Counted from the first letter of the stretch, positions 10,835 through 20,968 are shown. The stretch is 32,000 nucleotides of DNA from Candidatus Saccharimonadota bacterium (GCA_021654395.1 AP024486.1:330001-362000); one strand, 5' to 3'. Numbers and translations are program-made. Notes: generated from the letters alone by a model not told the origin.

Positions 10835-10892
10835 TTTATATAATGCATAATAATCATTTTATAACTTAAAAGACATTATTCAATTCGTATAT

Positions 10893-10964
10893 GGGCCTAT
10901 AGCTCAGGAGTAGAGCGCTCGCTTCGCATGCGAGAGGTCGCGGGTGCGAATCCCGCTAGGTCCA
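10893..10964 (+). tRNA. tRNA-Ala (anticodon CGC)
   Basis: Cloverleaf folded by hand: acceptor GGGCCTA/TAGGTCC with the G3:U70 alanine identity pair, D arm GCTC-AGGAGTA-GAGC, anticodon arm CTCGC-TTCGCAT-GCGAG, T arm GCGGG-TGCGAAT-CCCGC, discriminator A. No intron. CCA is not cleanly encoded. Confidence 0.9.
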
Positions 10965-10980
10965 TCCATCTATTAATTGA

Positions 10981-11025: not shown

Positions 11026-12675
11026 ATGATGGAGATGATTATTTATTTATTCATAGCAACATACATACTTTCATTTAACTTCGTGCTAGCTCTTATACCT
11101 ATAATAATCATACTTATACTTCTCTTTGCAGCTGGTGGTTCAAGATCCGGGATAAGCATTCTTGGGCTTATAGGATTCTCAGCTATAGTTGGAGCAGTAA
11201 GTGGGGGCAACCCTACAAAGGCTGTTAAGCGTGCTGGCAAGAATTTAAAGAAGACTTATGAAGGAATATATAAAAACCCTGCTTTGATGGAGTCTTTTAA
11301 TCAACTTGGTTACTCTTTAGCAGAAGGCGTAGAGAACGCTCGTCTTTATGCTAAAGCTAGATCTTATGGTCTTGACAGTAAAGTATCAAACGATGTAGCC
11401 AATAGTATAAAAGCAGGCTTTGAAAGTATAAATAATGCGATTGAAAATGATCTTAAACCTGCTTACAGATCAGGCCAAGCACTAAATCAATCACAGCAGG
11501 CTAATCTAAATCAAGACATAGATTATATAAACGATGCCTATGATCTTTATGCTGCATCTAATGCGGATGAGGAGGTATTCTATAACAAGTTCTTTGAATT
11601 GTTAAGAAAAAACCCGGAGTTGGCTAAGAGTCTTAATAATCATTTAATGAAAGTAATAGAAAATGATAAGCTTCTACCAAAAGCATTTAATAAAGCACCT
11701 TCAAATGCGACTGATGCAGAAAAACTTAGGGCTATTTTAGAGTCAGGAACGCCAGAAGCAGCCGTACTGAGAAATATAATTAAAAATTCTGTAGCTAAAG
11801 GCTTAGAATCAGCGTTTGCAGATAGGTATAATATAAAAAGAGTAACAAATAATCTGGCTTGGTATGCTACACAAGTAAGTTCTAATACACCTAAGTTTAG
11901 ATTAAAAAGTGCTAATGAAGCAAATATTGCGTATGAGAACCTGGCTAGAGCAAAGATGCTTTTTAACATAGACCCTGATGCAAATATAACTGCTGAAGCA
12001 TACAGAAGGGTTATAGATCAGGCAGCCGATAGGCATTTAGCAGGATACTGGAAAGCATTAGACAAGATGTATAAAGGTAATGCAGAATTACCTAGTTATA
12101 TGAGTTTGGGCTTCTACTCTGAAGAGGAATTCTTAAATAAGTATGTAAATGTGACTTCGCGCACAGGGCTTAAAGAAACATTATCTGGTCTATATGGTAG
12201 GAAAGAAAATGCAATGCGTGCACATATAAAAGTTCTTAAGAGACTTGCATCTATAGAGGCAGAGAGAAATTACTACTATAGAACTCTGGGCATGCACATA
12301 AAGCCAACTAATCCATTGGTATTTAATATTAAGGAGGCTTACTATGGAGGTCTCAGGAGATTAGAAAAGGCAACTCCACATAGAGTTAGTCCAGTATTTA
12401 GAAAGCTATTAGAGGATGAAAAAGGTAAAGTTCACTCAGGAAAGATTGAACTTAAGAGCTGGTTTATTCTACCAACTACATTCGAAGCTATGAGATTAGC
12501 GAGACATCCTAAAGATATAAAAGAAGCAGTTAGAAAAGCATTAACTAGACAGAACTTAAGAAAAACATTAGGCATTGCAAAGAGGTCACGTAGGGAAAGG
12601 AATGACTTAATTGAGGAATATCTAAAGGAACTTAAAGAGAAGAGAAGGTTTGAAAAAGAAAAGTTTATTAATTAA
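11026..12675 (+). CDS. Membrane-anchored helical protein of unknown function (operon gene 1)
   Basis: 549 aa. Two N-terminal hydrophobic segments (IIYLFIATYILSFNFVLALIPIIIILILLFAA; ISILGLIGFSAIVGAV) are followed by a K/R-rich stretch (KAVKRAGKNLKK, positive-inside). About 470 aa of hydrophilic Ala/Asn/Lys-rich sequence then ends in a basic tail KRSRRERNDLIEEYLKELKEKRRFEKEKFIN. No Walker A/B or other catalytic motif seen by eye. Confidence 0.75.
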   Translation: MMEMIIYLFIATYILSFNFVLALIPIIIILILLFAAGGSRSGISILGLIGFSAIVGAVSGGNPTKAVKRAGKNLKKTYEGIYKNPALMESFNQLGYSLAEGVENARLYAKARSYGLDSKVSNDVANSIKAGFESINNAIENDLKPAYRSGQALNQSQQANLNQDIDYINDAYDLYAASNADEEVFYNKFFELLRKNPELAKSLNNHLMKVIENDKLLPKAFNKAPSNATDAEKLRAILESGTPEAAVLRNIIKNSVAKGLESAFADRYNIKRVTNNLAWYATQVSSNTPKFRLKSANEANIAYENLARAKMLFNIDPDANITAEAYRRVIDQAADRHLAGYWKALDKMYKGNAELPSYMSLGFYSEEEFLNKYVNVTSRTGLKETLSGLYGRKENAMRAHIKVLKRLASIEAERNYYYRTLGMHIKPTNPLVFNIKEAYYGGLRRLEKATPHRVSPVFRKLLEDEKGKVHSGKIELKSWFILPTTFEAMRLARHPKDIKEAVRKALTRQNLRKTLGIAKRSRRERNDLIEEYLKELKEKRRFEKEKFIN

Positions 12676-12701: not shown

Positions 12702-14255
12702 ATGCAAGTTAGCAGAGTAGCAGTATTTACAATCATAGCTTTAGCTATACTTTTAAGCTTAACGCTATCTCCAGTAATTAATAAGAGTATAATAAAGGAA
12801 ACAAATGTATTTATAGAAAAGAGCGCTGCTTCTTTTCAATTGAGTCTTTTCAATAAGATTCCTAGAGTAGCATATATATTACCAAGGCCCACTCCTATTC
12901 CAGGACCTGGCTCAGGTCAATCCGGTTCTGGTCAATCAAGCTCTAGCTCTACTCAATCGAGCTCTTCAAGTAGTACAACTCTTGTATCGTGTACATCTAC
13001 ACCTGGAAATAATCTAAACAGTACAATAATAGGATATATATATAATCTGTCATTTTATGTTTGGATTGGTGTATTAATCTCTTTCTTAATATTGGGAGTA
13101 GCATATATGATAAAAAAGATATATCCTTCAAAAAGCTTTAATGAGTTTTTTGAGGAGGAGCTCAGAAGTGCAGTCGAATCTTTAATTATTATAGGTATGG
13201 TTGTTGGTTTGATACTTTTTATAGGAGATGCTGCAGGCTCTATAAGCGCGAATATAGTACAGTCTACACAGACTAGTGGATTATCATTATCTGGTAAGGG
13301 TGTTGGCCTTCTATATTCGTCTACCTGCTACGATATAGGCTATATATTAGCTCAGACATATAATATATATAGCTATATAATAGGCGCTTCGGAGGGCGCA
13401 GCTACTGCATCTTCTGGTAGTTTAACTTTTGATCCTATATACCCTTTGCCATTTACACTTGGCTTAGTCTCTGTAGAAGCAGGTGGATCTGAGCCTTTAG
13501 GGCAGAATACAGCGTACTTTTATCTTTTCTCCTCAAGCTTAAGTACGGTTGGCTTCTTAAATTTAATAACATATATATTTGAGTATTATGCCTTCTATCT
13601 AATAGTCGGCTTTGGATTTGGTGTTGCTTTACCACTTGGGATAATCTTCAGATCTTTCACATTCTTAAGAGATATAGGCAATAGTCTTATAGGCATAGCG
13701 ATAGGCATAATGCTAGTATATCCTGCATTAGTCTCGCTCTTCATATATCCTATATTCAATTTTATGTTTAATAATCTGGTTCTGCCTGCAGAGCAGAGCA
13801 TAAACGCTATTAGTCAAGCAAACTTTCTAAGCTTTATAGGCAATGCTGTAGGCTTTATAGGCGATCTGCTTACAAGAGGAAACTCTTTCACTACTGGTGC
13901 ATTAAGCTGCAGCAACGCGCTTACAGCTAATCCACAGAATATATTTTCATATGGATTATCCATACCATTTGCAATCTTAAATTATTATATAACAGACATA
14001 TACTATGGTTTTGACACAACCTTTGGTTTAAACTATAATTGCTTTGTATTGGGCTATACAGAAGGCTTTTATTATGCTTTAAGCTATGGTATAAGTAATC
14101 TATTAACAATCTTCATAATTGGAGGCATACCACTTGTAATATTGTTAATATTAGATGTATTTGCAATAATAATGGGCGTGATAATAGTAGATAATATTAC
14201 TAGGGCATTGGGCGGAGAGCTAAAGAAGAGGGTTGGAAGTATAAGACTTGTGTGA
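12702..14255 (+). CDS. Polytopic membrane protein, paralog 1 of 6 (unknown family)
   Basis: 517 aa. N-terminal signal/anchor (VAVFTIIALAILLSLTL), then the linker PGPGSGQSGSGQSSSSSTQSSSSSSTT followed by a Cys. Many long hydrophobic segments. Shares blocks A, B and C with the next five genes (block B GIIFRSFTFLRDIGNSLIGIAIGIMLVYP at 13638-13724). Confidence 0.8.
   Translation: MQVSRVAVFTIIALAILLSLTLSPVINKSIIKETNVFIEKSAASFQLSLFNKIPRVAYILPRPTPIPGPGSGQSGSGQSSSSSTQSSSSSSTTLVSCTSTPGNNLNSTIIGYIYNLSFYVWIGVLISFLILGVAYMIKKIYPSKSFNEFFEEELRSAVESLIIIGMVVGLILFIGDAAGSISANIVQSTQTSGLSLSGKGVGLLYSSTCYDIGYILAQTYNIYSYIIGASEGAATASSGSLTFDPIYPLPFTLGLVSVEAGGSEPLGQNTAYFYLFSSSLSTVGFLNLITYIFEYYAFYLIVGFGFGVALPLGIIFRSFTFLRDIGNSLIGIAIGIMLVYPALVSLFIYPIFNFMFNNLVLPAEQSINAISQANFLSFIGNAVGFIGDLLTRGNSFTTGALSCSNALTANPQNIFSYGLSIPFAILNYYITDIYYGFDTTFGLNYNCFVLGYTEGFYYALSYGISNLLTIFIIGGIPLVILLILDVFAIIMGVIIVDNITRALGGELKKRVGSIRLV
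12900..12980 (+). repeat. Coding low-complexity tract (PGPG-SGQSGSGQ-poly-Ser/Thr) in paralog 1
   Basis: Direct reading of codons 67-93 of the 12702 ORF: cca gga cct ggc tca ggt caa tcc ggt tct ggt caa tca agc tct agc tct act caa tcg agc tct tca agt agt aca act. Confidence 0.9.
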
Positions 14256-14261
14256 TAGTTA

Positions 14262-15620
14262 ATGCAAATAAGGATAAGATATTATATATTGCTTATAATT
14301 ACATTAGCTTTATTATTTACTAGTATCTCTAGCGCTAGTATAACTGGAAATACAAATGCATGTAATGGAAACTTTGGTGTTAATGGTCAGAATAGCTATG
14401 TCAGCGGATGGGTTGGTATAGCCTTTTTAGCAGTAGCAGTAGTATTTATGATAGCGGCTTTTATGTACGCCATAGGTAATGCTGTGGCCTCTGTATCTCT
14501 AAGGAATAAGCTAATTAGCTACAGCAAGGCAGAGCTTATGCAAGGTGTCTTCTCAATTATACTCATATTTATACTACTATGGGTAGCGCAAGGAGTAAGT
14601 TCAGTCTCATGTATTATATTTTCTGATATATTTAGTAATACTGTAGCAGGTACAAACTTAAACTATCTTGCATACGCTGATCCGTTTACTGCTTCAGAGA
14701 TATTTTTCAACTATGTACTATATAATATAGGCTTCAATGTATACTTTAATGTAGTAGAGAAGGAAGGCCTGGGTCTGCTAACAAGCGCCAACTATCTAAC
14801 GGCAGGATATAACTATGTCTCTAGAATAATAAACGGAATTACTAGTGGTCTAGTTAAAGATGTTGGAGCTGAGATAGTACCGGAGCTTAATATCGAGGCC
14901 ATACAAAGTCTTGGTTATACATTCGCAGATTTCTTACTTGATATAGCAAATCCATTAGTTTTTATAGGAATAGCTATGATACTTATAGTTGTAATAGTCT
15001 TACCAGTTATACCATTAATTGCATTTACGGTTATACTACCAGTTGCGATAGTTATTAGATCTTTAAGCTTTATATCTAGCGGTAATCTTAGAAAAGTTGC
15101 TGATACATTCCTAAGTCTCGCTATAGGTCTATATTTTGTATTTCCTTTAACAGTGGCTATGGATATATACATATTAAATTATGTTTACTGCGGTAATGAG
15201 TTTAATCTAGGATCAGCAACTATAAACACTGCAAGCTGTAATCCTGGTTATTATAAGATGTTTTTAGACTCTGCATTGCCAAGCAATGCACTTAACATAG
15301 TTACATCTGGATATATATCATCTTCATCAAGCAGTTTAGGCTCTGTAACATCAGTTCCACCATCAACTACAATAAGCCAACTAGAATCAAGCACGCCTCT
15401 AGTCTATGGAGCAAATCTGCTATCTGGCTTTGGTGATGCGATATCTTACTACATAGACTTTCCAAGCTATCTGCTATCTTTTATAGCAACGGTCTCAGAG
15501 CTTTATTTCATAGCAGTGTTTTTACTAGGCCTAGATGTTGGCATAGTAATCGCATTTGTACAGAGCTTAGCAGATTCGATTTCAGGTTTTATAACGAGCA
15601 GTAGCATATTCGGTGAATAA
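14262..15620 (+). CDS. Polytopic membrane protein, paralog 2 of 6 (unknown family)
   Basis: 452 aa. Signal-like N-terminus (YYILLIITLALLFTSISSASI), Cys-containing segment NACNGNFG, Ser-rich tract YISSSSSSLGSVTSVPPSTT. Block B VAIVIRSLSFISSGNLRKVADTFLSLAIGLYFVFP at 15042-15146. A GTGAT SD-like motif lies 5 nt upstream. 6-nt gap to the previous gene. Confidence 0.8.
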   Translation: MQIRIRYYILLIITLALLFTSISSASITGNTNACNGNFGVNGQNSYVSGWVGIAFLAVAVVFMIAAFMYAIGNAVASVSLRNKLISYSKAELMQGVFSIILIFILLWVAQGVSSVSCIIFSDIFSNTVAGTNLNYLAYADPFTASEIFFNYVLYNIGFNVYFNVVEKEGLGLLTSANYLTAGYNYVSRIINGITSGLVKDVGAEIVPELNIEAIQSLGYTFADFLLDIANPLVFIGIAMILIVVIVLPVIPLIAFTVILPVAIVIRSLSFISSGNLRKVADTFLSLAIGLYFVFPLTVAMDIYILNYVYCGNEFNLGSATINTASCNPGYYKMFLDSALPSNALNIVTSGYISSSSSSLGSVTSVPPSTTISQLESSTPLVYGANLLSGFGDAISYYIDFPSYLLSFIATVSELYFIAVFLLGLDVGIVIAFVQSLADSISGFITSSSIFGE

Positions 15621-15622
15621 AG

Positions 15623-16993
15623 ATGAGTAGTATATTTACGCAAGTTAGCTCTGCTATAGGCTTCTTTGATATATCTGTTGTGGCAATATTAATATCATTC
15701 TTAATAGTAGCAATAATGTATGCCTTTGGTGCAGTTATAGATAATAATGAGATAAAAGAGAGGGCTGTTTCAGAGTTTGCAAACTCTGTTTATTCAATAG
15801 TATTGTTAGTTGCTATATTTGCTTTTCTTCTATTCTTTGCTAATGTATACATCTCAGCTATATCTACGACATCTTATAATAACTATGTGGCTTACTCATG
15901 TAACTCTCTAGAAGGCTCCCAGCTACCAATAATACAGAATAAACAATCGCAAGCTAGTCTTATATACCAACTATGCAACTTATATCTAAACTTAGGTCAG
16001 TTAAAAGGAAGAGCCTACCAGATAGATTATCCCATATCAACTGCAGCAATAACTCTAGCTAATATGTCAAATCAGACATTCTCTAATACAGTAGATATAT
16101 ACAGCATACAATCATATATCTACTACCTATCCGGATTAAAGGCAATATTTGGAATATGTACCCCAACAGCTGGATGCTTCGCGTATATATTTCAGCCTAA
16201 GGGCTCATTTCAAACCCCATCAGCTTTTGGAGTTAGAATATCTTACGCTCCTTATCTAGGATTAAGGATAGCATATAGCTCTATATCTCCAATAGCTGAT
16301 GGCATATCATTTGCAATGAACTTTATGCTGGGCCTATTGCTTATAATAACAATATTCATATATGCATGGCCTTATCTTTTAGCGTTTGGCATCATACTAA
16401 GAACCTTATCAATAACAAGAATGGTAGGTGGATTACTAATAGCAGCTATTCCTATAATTCTATTAGTACTTCCAACTCTGTTTGCAATAGAGTACATAGC
16501 ATTCAATAACGCCCAGAGTAATAATATATATACAAATATACTTGGTACAGATGCTGCAAATGTACTTGGTTATAATATACCTCAAGAGAAGCCGAATGGG
16601 CAGCTATACTACTATCAATTAAATCTTTTCGATGAACCAAATATAGCATATCTAGCAAATGCCTTAAATTGCAGTACTGGTAGTAATCTGCTATCAATGA
16701 CATCCGAGGACTTTGGATATCTTCTGATTCCATTCTCATCTTTATTCTCTTCTATCTCTAGTATAATAAATCAGCAGACTAAAGGAGTGCCGACATTCTA
16801 TCTTCCAAACTACTGCTCACCTAAGTACGCTCCATATCTTGTCTTCTATATGGCAAGGGCTTATGGCATAATAGCATCTGAAGCCTTTATATTAATTCTA
16901 TTTAATTTAATTATAATAGTAAGTGGAACATCAGCTTTATCTGGATTATTCGGTGGTGATGTTGGTATCGCAGGACTATCAAAACTACTATAA
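15623..16993 (+). CDS. Polytopic membrane protein, paralog 3 of 6 (unknown family)
   Basis: 456 aa with no N-terminal anchor or linker; it starts directly with the block A hairpin. Eight Cys lie in apparently loop regions. Block B FGIILRTLSITRMVGGLLIAAIPIILLVLP at 16385-16474. GGTGA SD at 15612-15616. 2-nt gap to the previous gene. Confidence 0.8.
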   Translation: MSSIFTQVSSAIGFFDISVVAILISFLIVAIMYAFGAVIDNNEIKERAVSEFANSVYSIVLLVAIFAFLLFFANVYISAISTTSYNNYVAYSCNSLEGSQLPIIQNKQSQASLIYQLCNLYLNLGQLKGRAYQIDYPISTAAITLANMSNQTFSNTVDIYSIQSYIYYLSGLKAIFGICTPTAGCFAYIFQPKGSFQTPSAFGVRISYAPYLGLRIAYSSISPIADGISFAMNFMLGLLLIITIFIYAWPYLLAFGIILRTLSITRMVGGLLIAAIPIILLVLPTLFAIEYIAFNNAQSNNIYTNILGTDAANVLGYNIPQEKPNGQLYYYQLNLFDEPNIAYLANALNCSTGSNLLSMTSEDFGYLLIPFSSLFSSISSIINQQTKGVPTFYLPNYCSPKYAPYLVFYMARAYGIIASEAFILILFNLIIIVSGTSALSGLFGGDVGIAGLSKLL

Positions 16994-18338
16994 AGGCAAG
17001 AGCAGAAAAGTGGTAATAGCATTGATACTTATAGCTTTAGCTTTATCATATACCTTTAGCTATTCATTTAGTAAATTACCACAAAGATCTAACAATGTAA
17101 TAGACTTCCAATCAAGCTCGTCTAGCAGCTCACAGATAGACTACTGTCCAATCATATATCCGACTTCTATAAATACAGCATCATCTCTTAATATTAGCTC
17201 ATTGTTTTCAATACTATTCATAGAAGTATTAGCAATGGCATTGATATATGCATTTTTGTATGCAATCTCTATAGCATTTAAGCTCGATAAGCTAAGATCG
17301 TATATTGTAGATAATTTGCCTTCGGTATATCTCGTAGTTATACTAGGATTTATAGTTCTTTTCCTTGTAGATATTGTATATGGTGTATCAAATCCAATAC
17401 AGTCTTTTAATAATGGTCAGTATAGTAATAATATATTTACATATGATGAAGCAACTCTATCAACCGCAATGGGATTCAGTGCAGTCTCATATGGTATATC
17501 ATCAACTATAGGTGGATTTATAGCAGATATTATAGAAAATGCAAATGAACTAGTTGGAGAAGAATCAGTAAATGTTGGCGGCGTATTTGCTCAATTAGGT
17601 TTAAGAGTCTTTAATATAGCAATAAATCCCCTGGTTGGATCTGGTATATTTGTAGAACGACCAGAAGAGTCTGGGGGATTAACCTTGGCGCTTCCTAGCT
17701 CTCCAGTAATATTTAATGATATAATATTGGTATACTTCTTACTATATGGAGCAGGATTGCTTCTGCTTTATATAATATCTGGAGCATTTCCTATCCTGTT
17801 CTTTATAGGATTACCTATGCTAATAATACCCCCATTAAAGCATCTTGGATCCTCTCTTATAGCTATATTTATAGCATTTTATATCGGCTTTCCAGCCCTG
17901 TTCTATCTTTTTACTAATATGCTAGGTACAGTAGCAGCAGGCTCAAGCGCAGCCTTAACTCTAGATTTCACAAACAACATAGCTACTCTATGCAATGCTC
18001 TTAATAGTCTAACTTCATCATCTACAACGTCATCTAGTTTATCCATTCCATTATTATCGCAGCTAGCACAGTTAATAGGCATATTTGGAGATACATTAAA
18101 TACAATATATGCGTTCATACAGGCGCTTTATGGTATAACATTATCTACAGTGTATAATGGAATAACTCCAACGGGCCTAATGAGTATAGACTTTTTAATA
18201 ACTATTCTACCTGGAGCTTACATAATGACCTCACTAGTGTTTTCTATATATATAACATTATATCTAGTAGAAAGCTTAGGAGAAGTATTAGGATCAAGCA
18301 ATATATCCGTAGAATCTGTATTCAAAGAGGTGCTGTAA
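16959..18338 (+). CDS. Polytopic membrane protein, paralog 4 of 6 (unknown family); start uncertain
   Basis: The track ORF starts at GTG 16923 (71-nt overlap). In-frame ATG 16959 gives MLVSQDYQNYYKGKSRKVVIALILIALALSY (basic n-region plus hydrophobic anchor). GTG 17010 is also possible. Poly-Ser linker FQSSSSSSSQIDYC. Block B IGLPMLIIPPLKHLGSSLIAIFIAFYIGFP at 17805-17894. Confidence 0.75.
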   Translation: MLVSQDYQNYYKGKSRKVVIALILIALALSYTFSYSFSKLPQRSNNVIDFQSSSSSSSQIDYCPIIYPTSINTASSLNISSLFSILFIEVLAMALIYAFLYAISIAFKLDKLRSYIVDNLPSVYLVVILGFIVLFLVDIVYGVSNPIQSFNNGQYSNNIFTYDEATLSTAMGFSAVSYGISSTIGGFIADIIENANELVGEESVNVGGVFAQLGLRVFNIAINPLVGSGIFVERPEESGGLTLALPSSPVIFNDIILVYFLLYGAGLLLLYIISGAFPILFFIGLPMLIIPPLKHLGSSLIAIFIAFYIGFPALFYLFTNMLGTVAAGSSAALTLDFTNNIATLCNALNSLTSSSTTSSSLSIPLLSQLAQLIGIFGDTLNTIYAFIQALYGITLSTVYNGITPTGLMSIDFLITILPGAYIMTSLVFSIYITLYLVESLGEVLGSSNISVESVFKEVL

Positions 18339-18339
18339 T

Positions 18340-19386
18340 ATGATAACGCTAACCGGAATACTCGGAAGCATACAAGCAGAATTTCTTGCGTTTGGCAGCA
18401 TAGCGATACTTACAGTAATAGTTGTAGCAGCATTTATATACATGCTAGCATCATTTATAAACAATGGGGGTCTTAAAGAAAAGATGAAGGATGCTGTATT
18501 TAATGCATTTGCATCTCTAATAATGTTAAATCTATTTGTATTCTTCTTTAATCTAGTTAACTTACCTATATACAACGCATACTCAGCAATAGGATTACTT
18601 CCCACAGGAGTTAATCCTAATCTAGAACCAATTCTATCTAATTGTATTATCGGTGCTTATTCTTTTAGTACTAAAACAATAACAATATATAACGCATCGG
18701 TATGCGATGTGGCTCAGCTTTACAACTTTGGCGTAACATCATTCTATGGGATATATTATATAACTTTAGCGACAGTACTATTCCCTCAGATAGAGGTTGC
18801 AGCAGATGTTTTTGGTATTGGTACAGTATCATCAGCCTTTGGTTTCTTTAATAATATAACAGAAAGTGGATTGGACTTTCTACTAGAGATAATATTCTTC
18901 CTACTTCTATTCGATGCTCTCCAGTTCATTATACTGAATGCATCATACATAATATTTCTTTTGTTTATAGCAATAGGTCTAATAGCAAGAATATTTCCAT
19001 TTGCAAGAAAGTTTGGTGGTGGTCTTATAGCACTTGGATTAACTTTAGGTCTAATATATCCTCTTATCGCTTCTGTGTTATATGGATATGTGAACACTGC
19101 TATATATCAAACAGAGCTTAGTTATATTATAAACACCGCTACATCGTCAACTTCAAGCAGCGCTATTATTGCTACTACAAGCAATCCATCACTTAGTATA
19201 TTCTATTCAATTCCTACTATAATAAAAATACTAGAAGGTCTTTTCTATATAGCAGGACTAGTTATAGCGGGATCTTCAATACTTCCTTTAATAATATTAG
19301 CAATACTGGATGGCTTTGTAAAAGATCTATCCGGTTTATTCGGTTTGCAGTTAGAGATAGGATCTTTATTTAGTGGTTTACTATGA
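18340..19386 (+). CDS. Polytopic membrane protein, paralog 5 of 6 (unknown family)
   Basis: 348 aa, short type (no N-terminal anchor or linker). GAGGTG SD at 18327-18332. 1-nt gap to the previous stop. Block B IGLIARIFPFARKFGGGLIALGLTLGLIYP at 18973-19062. Ser/Thr tract TATSSTSSSAIIATTSNPS. Confidence 0.8.
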   Translation: MITLTGILGSIQAEFLAFGSIAILTVIVVAAFIYMLASFINNGGLKEKMKDAVFNAFASLIMLNLFVFFFNLVNLPIYNAYSAIGLLPTGVNPNLEPILSNCIIGAYSFSTKTITIYNASVCDVAQLYNFGVTSFYGIYYITLATVLFPQIEVAADVFGIGTVSSAFGFFNNITESGLDFLLEIIFFLLLFDALQFIILNASYIIFLLFIAIGLIARIFPFARKFGGGLIALGLTLGLIYPLIASVLYGYVNTAIYQTELSYIINTATSSTSSSAIIATTSNPSLSIFYSIPTIIKILEGLFYIAGLVIAGSSILPLIILAILDGFVKDLSGLFGLQLEIGSLFSGLL

Positions 19387-20516
19387 TGGCGTACATCTAC
19401 ATATCATTAGTATTATTAATTGCATCACATCTCATACTGCTAATACCTGGAAGTGGGGGCCCACCACCAACAGGCTCGCAGCAGCTAATATGTAGCTCAC
19501 CAGGCTTTAATGGCTTGCCTGCTAGTCTATTACCTTCCTATATAGCAGAATGGTACTGTCCAATAAACTCATTTATAGTCGCTGAACTCAATAGCTATAT
19601 CTACTTAATAAGCCTTGTTCTTATTATACCGTACTTAGTATCTTCAGTACTAATATCAATAGGAATAGCTTTTAAATTAGATAAAGTAAGAAGATATGGC
19701 GTTGCAGAGCTCTATGATGCTGTTGCCTCATCAATAATGCTTATACTATTTATCTACATATCTGCGATACTCTTTGGGGACATACCCGGAATATACGTCG
19801 GTCCTGTAGATCCTTACACATACGTTATATTTAACATTAATAATATACTGCAAGAGCTAGAAAGCTTATATACTAACTTATACTATAGCGCCTATGGGCC
19901 TTATACTATTACATCTCTAACTATATCTTTAATACCAAATCTGTTTAATCTGTTGAATCCTGTAGCAAATGCAATACTAAGCACCTTCTATCTTGGATAT
20001 CTGAACTCTTATGTTATTCCAGCGTTAGCACTGAGCAGCATAATTATATCTGCAACAGATCTATTAACATTAGAGCTATACTTAATAGAGTTCTTTGGTA
20101 TAATAGCAATACCTGCATTTATTATACCTGGCTTATTAATTAGAGTATTTCTTCCATTAAGAGGAGTCGGAGCTTCGATGGTTGCTATAGGCTTTACATT
20201 ATTCTTAATTGTTCCTACTCTATTTTCTATAGCTGTCTATCTGACTTCTAATACTGTATCTGGTTCATTAGAGAATGCAATAGGGTTAGCACAATCTCTA
20301 AGTGGAGTTAATGCAGTAAAGTATACTGGTAGCTCTCTTGCTTTGGGCGTTAGCGTTACATTTGGTATAGAGAATGCTCTAGACCAGATATTTCTATTAG
20401 CACTCTTCTATCCTGCATTAATAGTCGTTGTAGCATTCTCTGCTATACAGCAGCTTACATCGATATTAGGGGGAAGTGCACAGGTAGGGCAGAGATTTAG
20501 AGCAGCATTCATATGA
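19383..20516 (+). CDS. Polytopic membrane protein, paralog 6 of 6 (unknown family)
   Basis: 377 aa. ATGA overlap with the previous gene. N-terminal anchor YIYISLVLLIASHLILLI, then linker PGSGGPPPTGSQQLIC. Block B PGLLIRVFLPLRGVGASMVAIGFTLFLIVP at 20127-20216. Confidence 0.8.
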   Translation: MMAYIYISLVLLIASHLILLIPGSGGPPPTGSQQLICSSPGFNGLPASLLPSYIAEWYCPINSFIVAELNSYIYLISLVLIIPYLVSSVLISIGIAFKLDKVRRYGVAELYDAVASSIMLILFIYISAILFGDIPGIYVGPVDPYTYVIFNINNILQELESLYTNLYYSAYGPYTITSLTISLIPNLFNLLNPVANAILSTFYLGYLNSYVIPALALSSIIISATDLLTLELYLIEFFGIIAIPAFIIPGLLIRVFLPLRGVGASMVAIGFTLFLIVPTLFSIAVYLTSNTVSGSLENAIGLAQSLSGVNAVKYTGSSLALGVSVTFGIENALDQIFLLALFYPALIVVVAFSAIQQLTSILGGSAQVGQRFRAAFI

Positions 20517-20761
20517 GAGCAGTGACCACTGTAGCCACACTTCTGTTTTAGATAGCATTAAAGCCTAAGCGGCATAACGCCTTGCATAATCATAGCCAGT
20601 ATGCGGCAGGTCTCACTCTGCTATATAAGGCTCGTAGAGTCATCGCTTTCTCTTATATAGCAGATCTCCTTTCTGTTCCGCATACAAAGACTTATCTGTT
20701 GGCTCATATGGTGGAGCTTCCTCCGCTCTACAGAGCGGTAGCTATCCATGGATCACTACTC
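20517..20761 (-). ncRNA. rnpB: RNase P RNA (compact archaeal form, about 245 nt)
   Basis: The minus-strand reading begins GAGUAGUGAUC CAUGGAUAGC UA CCGCUC-UGUA-GAGCGG AGGAAGCUCCACCAUAUGAGCC and ends GCUAUCUAAAACAGAAGUGUGGCUACAGUGGUCACUGCUC. P1 is GAGUAGUGAUC paired with GGUCACUGCUC (11 bp including G-U pairs). P2 is GGAUAGC paired with GCUAUCU. P3 is the hairpin CCGCUC/GAGCGG. A CR-I-like GAGGAAGCUCC (consensus GAGGAAAGUCC) and a CR-V-like ACAGAAGUGUGGCUA (consensus ACAGAAnnnGGCUUA) can form P4. An internal perfect 13-bp helix is UCUGCUAUAUAAG/CUUAUAUAGCAGA. Local GC is visibly higher than the surroundings. Confidence 0.72.
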
Positions 20762-20968
20762 TCATTTTATTGCCAATCTTATATCGGATTTCTTAACAGT
20801 CCTTCTTTTAGCATGCTTAGCCAATAGGACTGCTTTTTTAGCTATAGCTATAGCATAGGCTTCGAGATATCTCTCTAACTCCTCAATGGCAGCAGGGCTA
20901 ATACGCTTAGCGCCATTATCCTTTAATAGCTTCTTTAAAGCGCTCCTCTTAATGTACATAATTATCAT
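20762..20968 (-). CDS. Archaeal histone (HMf family, histone fold)
   Basis: 68 aa. The pattern RISPAAIEELERYLEAYAIAIAKKAVLLAKHAKRRTVKKSDIRLAIK is a canonical archaeal histone (...A...L......A...A.HAGRKTV...DI.LA). Confidence 0.85.
   Translation of the reverse strand: MIIMYIKRSALKKLLKDNGAKRISPAAIEELERYLEAYAIAIAKKAVLLAKHAKRRTVKKSDIRLAIK

Follow-up and report, generated by a model that had tools for sequence, protein, structure and literature searches.

The question raised by this locus is what six adjacent genes for membrane proteins of no familiar kind do in a symbiotic archaeon. The locus lies in a 32,000-nucleotide stretch of DNA (AP024486.1:330001–362000, hereafter the window, with positions counted from its first letter) from Candidatus Micrarchaeota archaeon ARM-1 (Microcaldus variisymbioticus). 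This DPANN symbiont is thermoacidophilic, has been cultivated and has a genome of 0.81 Mb. The six open reading frames (ORFs), P1–P6, correspond to genes ARM1_0370–0375, are all encoded on the plus strand and lie 1–6 nt apart or overlap. We lean towards the view that their products act as VirB6/CedA-like subunits and build a hetero-oligomeric platform in the membrane, as part of a type IV apparatus resembling the Ced and Ted systems.

The initial annotation had described the six genes as tandem paralogs sharing three colinear conserved blocks (A, B and C). In pairwise BLASTP the resemblance among the proteins is weak (25–37 bits), yet colinear. Such low scores speak for the view that the six genes are unrelated and that their hydrophobic composition makes the three blocks look alike by coincidence, an alternative which the annotation itself had named and which was tested by profile-profile alignment of the six proteins. 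Profiles built from two ortholog sequences aligned in hhalign with probabilities of 18–97%, mostly 86–97%, and subfamily profiles of 4–19 sequences connected 15/15 pairs at 95.8–98.7% (E 7e-9 to 2.5e-16), many of them over 200–350 columns. By contrast, TM245, an unrelated polytopic protein encoded in the same gene clusters of relatives and used as a control, reached at most 4.6% against the P1–P6 profiles, and P0, encoded immediately upstream of P1, is not in the six-paralog family (≤3.2%). As the profile scores are far above the TM245 control, the resemblance represents homology and not shared hydrophobic composition. Further to that, an exhaustive search of 1.84 billion cluster representatives (50% identity clusters) with a hidden Markov model (HMM) of the family returned 2,489 of them at E ≤ 1e-3, 1,265 at E ≤ 1e-10 and 68 at E ≤ 1e-30. 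We regard the coincidence explanation as refuted, its remaining probability being negligible.

The blocks themselves were located at colinear positions in 6/6 proteins (Blocks A and C) or translate, at the coordinates given below, exactly to the peptides listed in the initial annotation (Block B). Block B, with the pattern G-[ILV]-[ILV]-x-R-x5-R-x2-G-G ... P, is the best conserved element of the family, and both of its Arg residues are kept in nearly all orthologs of each subfamily (30–62 orthologs per subfamily).

An indexed search with P5 retrieved a single homolog (P0013, L001:10001–11131), located on a Micrarchaeota contig from a metagenome-assembled genome (L001). This contig carries counterparts of all six genes in the same succession: orthologs of P1 (L001:4774–5979, E 8e-17), P2 (L001:5985–7190, E 1.5e-21), P3 (L001:7192–8832, E 1.4e-28) and P4 (L001:8841–10004, E 1e-9) precede P0013, the P5 ortholog, and that of P6, the best conserved of the six, follows it (L001:11140–12210, E 3e-42). 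Locus scans added 4 loci from GTDB genomes and 63 from JGI metagenomes. Their ORFs were classified by subfamily HMMs, the scores of which were cleanly diagonal in a control locus (L017), and gene order was counted over 66 loci. The six subfamilies occur one-to-one and in the fixed order P1–P6, with 29 complete sets, no order violation in any of the 66 loci and a P1-type gene always first in the array. All loci bearing organism names belong to Micrarchaeota. It is almost certain that P1–P6 are true paralogs with an ancient, fixed-order orthology, and the earlier suggestion of old duplications with non-redundant copies is borne out by each copy having its own Micrarchaeota ortholog. A highly divergent Micrarchaeota contig (L007:8682–16686) also contains exactly six tandem members, placed among housekeeping genes and lacking an ATPase module; an attempt to match these six one-to-one to P1–P6 failed, the sequences being too divergent.

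The family is large, unnamed and not recognised by sequence. No model in Pfam-A or NCBIfam matches any of the six proteins, any one Pfam family is hit by at most 3 of 132 relatives, and the family profile finds no match among PDB sequences; the HMM search proposed in the initial annotation thus led to no named domain family. The organism names attached to relatives are Micrarchaeota, Micrarchaeales or Micrarchaeaceae, save for a few labels that are probably binning errors. The six genes are not mentioned in the ARM-1 papers and their supplements, where their text is searchable, and the searchable literature on type IV secretion systems (T4SS) in DPANN or Micrarchaeota, on Ced and on Ted holds no description of the family or of the gene cluster considered below.

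What kind of proteins these are can be read from their predicted topology. AlphaFold2 models of P5 (mean predicted local distance difference test score, pLDDT, 84.2; predicted template modelling score, pTM, 0.82) and P3 (pLDDT 80.3, pTM 0.78) agree in how their elements follow one another. Both begin with a pair of long helices and continue with an extracellular region that contains a long helix and a beta-hairpin; after this come two very long helices, a poorly ordered variable region, a long hydrophobic fifth helix and a short terminal helix. Hydropathy is consistent with the modelled helix order. Lys and Arg amount to ~19 per 100 aa in loops A and B and to 8 in the tail, compared with 1.4–3.1 in three long regions, which also hold all 20 Cys residues. 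By the positive-inside rule, this distribution, together with the models and hydropathy, indicates a predicted topology with the N-terminus outside, five transmembrane helices, two variable extracellular regions and the C-terminus inside. Blocks A and B each comprise a cytoplasmic turn and the helices on either side of it (a transmembrane hairpin), the loop of Block A being charged, and Block C is a short, Gly-rich, amphipathic cytoplasmic tail. The first variable extracellular region, with Cys residues, lies between Blocks A and B, and the second between the Block B hairpin and the fifth transmembrane helix.

The individual proteins vary around this plan. The minimal family core is represented by P5 (ARM1_0374, 18340–19386, 348 aa, Block B at 18973–19062), which has no signal peptide. 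P3 (ARM1_0372, 15623–16993, 456 aa, Block B at 16385–16474) likewise lacks one and has a large first extracellular region. In P1, P2, P4 and P6 a signal peptide precedes the outside N-terminus. P1 (ARM1_0370, 12702–14255, 517 aa, Block B at 13638–13724) begins with this signal peptide, or with a transmembrane segment (TM0), followed by a Ser-rich linker and the five-helix core. P2 (ARM1_0371, 14262–15620, 452 aa) carries within Block B (15042–15146) a 5-residue insert specific to the P2 subfamily, and P6 (ARM1_0375-like, 19383–20516, 377 aa, Block B at 20127–20216) has an extracellular N-terminal segment with Cys residues, including a WYCP motif, ahead of the five-helix core. The start of P4 (ARM1_0373, 16962–18338, Block B at 17805–17894) is uncertain: the longest ORF opens at a GTG at 16923, and the GenBank protein, of 458 aa, at a TTG at 16962. 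Some relatives are far larger, with additions exactly at the predicted extracellular regions (P0157, 1457 aa; P0158, 975 aa; P0091, 887 aa; P0153, 999 aa): one member has a ~1,000-aa Cys-rich insert between Blocks B and C, and others have immunoglobulin-like (Ig-like) inserts in the same place, Ig-like or Thr-rich N-terminal extensions, or long repeat regions at the N-terminus.

Among the sequences from the exhaustive search, one of 901 aa (P0052) apparently joins two copies of the family in a single polypeptide: a P2-like half, with Blocks A, B and C of its own, is followed by a P3-like half. It is possibly a natural fusion of neighbouring paralogs, or the result of a missed stop codon; a fusion, if real, would argue for physical contact between neighbouring paralogs.

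In the relatives, the array sits within a cluster of 13–15 genes. It starts with one to three genes for small pilin-like proteins (small132) and the gene for TM245, a 245-aa polytopic protein, continues with P1–P6 and an optional P0-like gene, and ends with the pair K280 and K274, a ~500-aa ATPase and the small proteins K98 and K116. TM245 and small132 genes are present upstream of the array in 19/20 evaluable loci, and K280 and K274 downstream of P6 in 26/28, in most cases accompanied by the ATPase, K98 and K116 if the contig is long enough. Gaps between the genes are mostly short, and the order is the same across divergent lineages. In the small132 proteins a signal peptide is followed by a hairpin of two helices, and both ends carry a conserved Cys; 10/19 match the Pfam family TrbC/VirB2 (best E 2.6e-6) and 4/19 match T4SS_pilin. 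The ATPase matches AAA_10, DUF87 and the TraG P-loop in Pfam and, among PDB entries, HerA (E 1.8e-13) and VirB4 (4ag5, E 4.8e-9). K280 and K274 (L001:14392–16062), of ~275 aa and with two transmembrane helices and a soluble domain each, are paralogs of one another (hhalign 97.5%) and have no relatives in Pfam or PDB. We consider it very probable that the six-gene array belongs to a type IV-like cluster in Micrarchaeota.

Several features of this cluster deserve mention in their own right. In the pilins (L001:3506–3904 and 18 more), the C-terminal Cys is invariant and at the extreme end of the chain, and the other, well conserved, stands just before the first helix; an end-to-end disulfide might imitate the way in which TrbC/VirB2 pilins are cyclised head to tail. 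Two or three tandem pilin genes are present in many loci. K280 and K274 are always placed between P6 and the ATPase, the position held by VirB3 and VirB8 in bacterial systems. A T2SSE ATPase (PilB/FlaI/VirB11-type) and a 400-aa coiled-coil protein are encoded divergently upstream on two contigs only (L001:554–3270, minus strand, and L065) and are not part of the conserved core.

Which part of a type IV machine could six such proteins represent? In a Foldseek search of 350,542 PDB chains with the P5 model, the top four matches were TrwI/VirB6 chains of the R388 stalk (E 0.018–0.069, probability 0.66–0.95, TM-score 0.22–0.36), and the top match in the viral library BFVD was annotated as TrbL (E 0.37); with P3, TrwI chains ranked 3 and 7 (E 1.4–1.7). 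TrwI (PDB 7o3v, 8rt9, 8rtd) served as the solved VirB6 reference. The predicted topology agrees with the polytopic pattern of VirB6, as judged from hydropathy, models and the distribution of Lys, Arg and Cys. VirB6 of Agrobacterium tumefaciens, in the 2004 work of Jakubowski and colleagues, reportedly spans the membrane with about five helices, has its N-terminus outside and its C-terminus in the cytoplasm, and forms a large loop on the extracytoplasmic side. Both P1–P6 and VirB6/TrbL proteins are polytopic and nearly all-helical, with long hydrophobic helices, an N-terminus outside, a large extracytoplasmic middle part and a C-terminus inside, and R388 VirB6 has seven long helices, of which five are hydrophobic (PMC9259494). 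VirB6 is also encoded beside a VirB2-type pilin and a VirB4-type ATPase, as are P1–P6 in the relatives, though not in the ARM-1 window. Finally, Block A is weakly in register with the cluster pilin hairpin (probability 8%, E 0.004), which echoes the reported likeness of the VirB6 or CedA N-terminus to VirB2 (PMC9905601). Because the fold matches recur, weak as each of them is, the topology is shared and the gene context fits, we suggest that the family, although not a member of TrbL/VirB6, probably works like VirB6.

The closest archaeal comparison is with Ced and Ted, by which Crenarchaeota import DNA. Both descend from type IV secretion systems, and their polytopic component (CedA/CedE or TedA) is a remote homolog of VirB6 (PMC9905601, PMC11868833). 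CedE, an archaeal CedA paralog, has five transmembrane helices (PMC11868833), and the CedA N-terminus resembles a pilin hairpin (PMC9905601). Judged by gene composition and published topology, the Micrarchaeota cluster would be akin to these minimal chromosomal sets, which consist of a VirB2-like pilin (CedA1/TedC), a polytopic protein (CedA/CedE, TedA) and a HerA/VirB4-like ATPase (CedB/TedB), and do without outer-membrane parts, relaxase and coupling protein. Such a trio, with neither relaxase nor coupling protein, is what the cluster contains in relatives, but not in the ARM-1 window. Ced and Ted differ in having one or two polytopic proteins, not six, and in occurring in Sulfolobales and Thermoproteales, not in DPANN, while TM245, K280/K274, K98 and K116 are extra conserved genes of the Micrarchaeota cluster.

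On this basis, one copy each of P1–P6 would assemble into a hetero-oligomeric membrane platform or channel. A hetero-oligomer with one of each is suggested by the one-to-one, fixed-order paralogs and by their tight packing, which fits co-translation in equal amounts. The platform would take the role of VirB6, CedA or TedA, and its partners in this minimal archaeal machine of the type IV secretion kind would be the TrbC/VirB2-like pilins and a hexameric HerA/VirB4-type ATPase. The cytoplasmic Block B turn with its two Arg residues, along with the other cytoplasmic loops and the tail, would point towards the ATPase and K280/K274, and the divergent ectodomains towards the base of the pilus or the cell surface. 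The substrate could be DNA or protein, or the machine might only build a pilus. R388 VirB6 is a homo-pentamer matching a five-start pilus (PMC9259494); six different subunits could instead match the hexameric ATPase. A bolder version, which we think improbable as a whole, has the six arranged as a one-of-each, pseudo-sixfold ring matched to the HerA/VirB4-type ATPase, with the machine, found throughout Micrarchaeota on this view, serving as a symbiont-side conduit for host DNA, lipids or proteins. In ARM-1 it would possibly belong to the barrel-like docking structure, as yet unexplained, that electron cryo-tomography (cryo-ET) shows at the entry of host nanotubes into the symbiont envelope (PMC11329633).

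A number of observations weigh against a VirB6-like platform. The Foldseek matches are individually non-significant (E 0.018–0.37 for P5, TM-score 0.27–0.36, root-mean-square deviation 10–13 Å), and those of P3 are within noise. A link to VirB6 at the level of sequence was sought and came out negative throughout: Pfam TrbL matches neither the six proteins nor any of the 132 relatives, hmmsearch against PDB sequences was equally negative, and hhalign of the 132-sequence family profile gave 0.1–0.2% against both TrwI and a 9-sequence MPF_T VirB6 profile; the MPF_T VirB6 alignment shows neither the R-x5-R-x2-G-G turn nor the Gly-rich C-terminal tail. VirB6 is the product of a single gene and forms a homo-pentamer, unlike six distinct paralogs in fixed order. 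The similarity of the ATPase to VirB4 is matched by its similarity to HerA. TM245 could be the true CedA analogue; considered as the counterpart of VirB6, it resembled neither the VirB6 profile nor any PDB sequence. Two further points concern ARM-1 itself. Six-frame HMM scans of the window with 10 kb on each side (~52 kb) found no gene for pilin, TM245, K280/K274, ATPase, K98 or K116. In addition, the loss of the conserved Arg residues from Block B of P4, noted in the initial annotation, is real and peculiar to ARM-1: its P4 is the only one of 50 to lack both, having L and K instead, as the 49/49 others keep R...R. The ARM-1 array may accordingly work differently or alone, or be decaying.

This last possibility can be put more sharply: in ARM-1 only, the array would be a remnant, orphaned from the ancestral cluster and slowly decaying, that now serves little or no purpose. 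It would account for the separation from all partner genes and for the Arg pair lost from P4 alone, where moreover a Pro replaces an almost invariant Trp in Block B (17805–17894), and P1, P5 and P6 are also substituted at several near-invariant Block B positions. However, the six ORFs and P0 are intact over 9.5 kb, their tight spacing and overlaps are still preserved, and useless DNA is usually lost fast from so small a genome. The partner genes may also sit elsewhere in the 0.81-Mb genome; loci L025 and L070 likewise have no downstream module. We consider a non-functional remnant very unlikely.

Two other readings accept the family and differ on its role. The six could belong to the same apparatus without being VirB6 equivalents, acting as membrane-anchored surface or stalk subunits closer in function to VirB5-type tip or adhesin proteins, or to minor pilins, each with a pilin-like N-terminal hairpin and an ectodomain specialised for contact with the host cell or the surface layer (S-layer). 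Micrarchaeota live attached to hosts as symbionts (PMC8784108, PMC11329633), which fits this reading, and it also draws on the variable ectodomains with their huge Ig-like or Cys-rich inserts in some relatives, on the weak register of Block A with the VirB2-like pilin hairpin and on the match of 2/132 members to Pfam T4SS_pilin. Conservation, however, peaks in the cytoplasmic Block B and tail and not in the exposed parts, five transmembrane helices exceed the needs of an anchor, and the fold matches are to VirB6/TrbL chains, not to VirB5; on balance we judge surface subunits unlikely, but the strongest of the competing explanations. Somewhat less likely still is an autonomous complex, such as a transporter or a device for biogenesis or anchoring of the envelope or S-layer, whose adjacency to pilin and ATPase genes would reflect co-regulation. 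It would explain why no ATPase module is within reach in ARM-1, L007, L025 and L070, and why the six-paralog family has no sequence similarity to any T4SS component. Against it stand the neighbourhood kept in the same order in nearly all evaluable loci of divergent lineages (the 26/28 and 19/20 above), the lack of a match to any transporter family in Pfam, NCBIfam or PDB sequences, and VirB6/TrbL being the best structural match in two libraries.

Returning to the VirB6-like platform, partial precedents exist in bacteria. Rickettsiales, which like the carriers of the six-gene array are obligately host-associated and have reduced genomes, carry tandem diverged VirB6 copies in their rvh T4SS (VirB6-1 to VirB6-4 in Anaplasma and Ehrlichia), some with very large extensions. 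Unlike P1–P6, these copies are bacterial, recognisable as VirB6/TrbL by sequence and variable in number, and we know of no defined hetero-oligomer that they form. In Patescibacteria (the candidate phyla radiation, CPR), a chromosomal T4SS was reported to be essential for epibiotic growth (PMC12102498). It is similar in being a conserved chromosomal type IV system with VirB2-like pilins in ultra-small episymbionts, but is bacterial, of the MPF_FATA type and equipped with recognisable VirB4, VirB6/PrgH, VirB3 and VirB8, and no six-paralog array has been described for it.

What would be new here is a type IV or Ced/Ted-like machine in DPANN archaea, the polytopic component of which has expanded to six fixed paralogs unrecognisable by sequence. 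To our knowledge, no symbiont-side machinery has been assigned through which DPANN archaea could be supplied by their hosts. The cluster parallels the chromosomal type IV system of Patescibacteria and would extend machines of the Ced/Ted type to DPANN. If true, a VirB6 platform of six different subunits would be a new architecture for the membrane core of type IV systems, and would bear on how pilus, platform and ATPase match in symmetry. The idea is directly testable, as ARM-1 is among the few cultivated members and has been imaged by cryo-ET.

Within ARM-1, P0–P6 probably constitute a tightly packed operon, detached from the remaining cluster genes. The P6 start and the P5 stop overlap by 4 nt (ATGA), which suggests translational coupling, and P0 (ARM1_0369-like, 11026–12675, plus strand) ends 26 nt upstream of P1. 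Its 549-aa product has two N-terminal transmembrane helices followed by a long hydrophilic region rich in Lys, Arg and Glu. The N-terminal 68 aa of P0 are 37% identical to a 684-aa protein encoded after P6 in L001 (12256–14310), the HMM of which P0 matches at E 2.3e-5 (in a small search space). P0-like genes stand directly before P1 in L041, L042 and L063, and after P6 in L001, L047, L060 and L065, and P0 is probably an accessory gene of the system. The L001 protein is extremely rich in Arg, Ala and Gly, and its weak match to HHH_5 (helix-hairpin-helix, E 0.0012) may hint at DNA binding; ARM-1 P0 has no HHH_5 match.

The block is flanked by housekeeping genes, on the left for an ABC transporter, HMG-CoA reductase and tRNA-Ala, and on the right for a histone, an M50 protease, an Lhr-type helicase and GatE. 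The tRNA-Ala gene (CGC, 10892–10968, plus strand) lies between the HMG-CoA reductase gene and P0, at the left edge of the P0–P6 block. Integration of a mobile element at this tRNA gene was considered and ruled out, there being no att-like direct repeat (the right edge included), no integrase and only housekeeping genes in the flanks. Just downstream of P6, on the minus strand, is an archaeal histone-fold gene (20762–20968, 68 aa, ...AKRISPAAIEELERYLEAYAIAIAKKAVLLAKHAKRRTVKKSDIRLAIK), recognised by eye only; an 81-aa ORF on the plus strand (20582–20827) that overlaps it is probably spurious.

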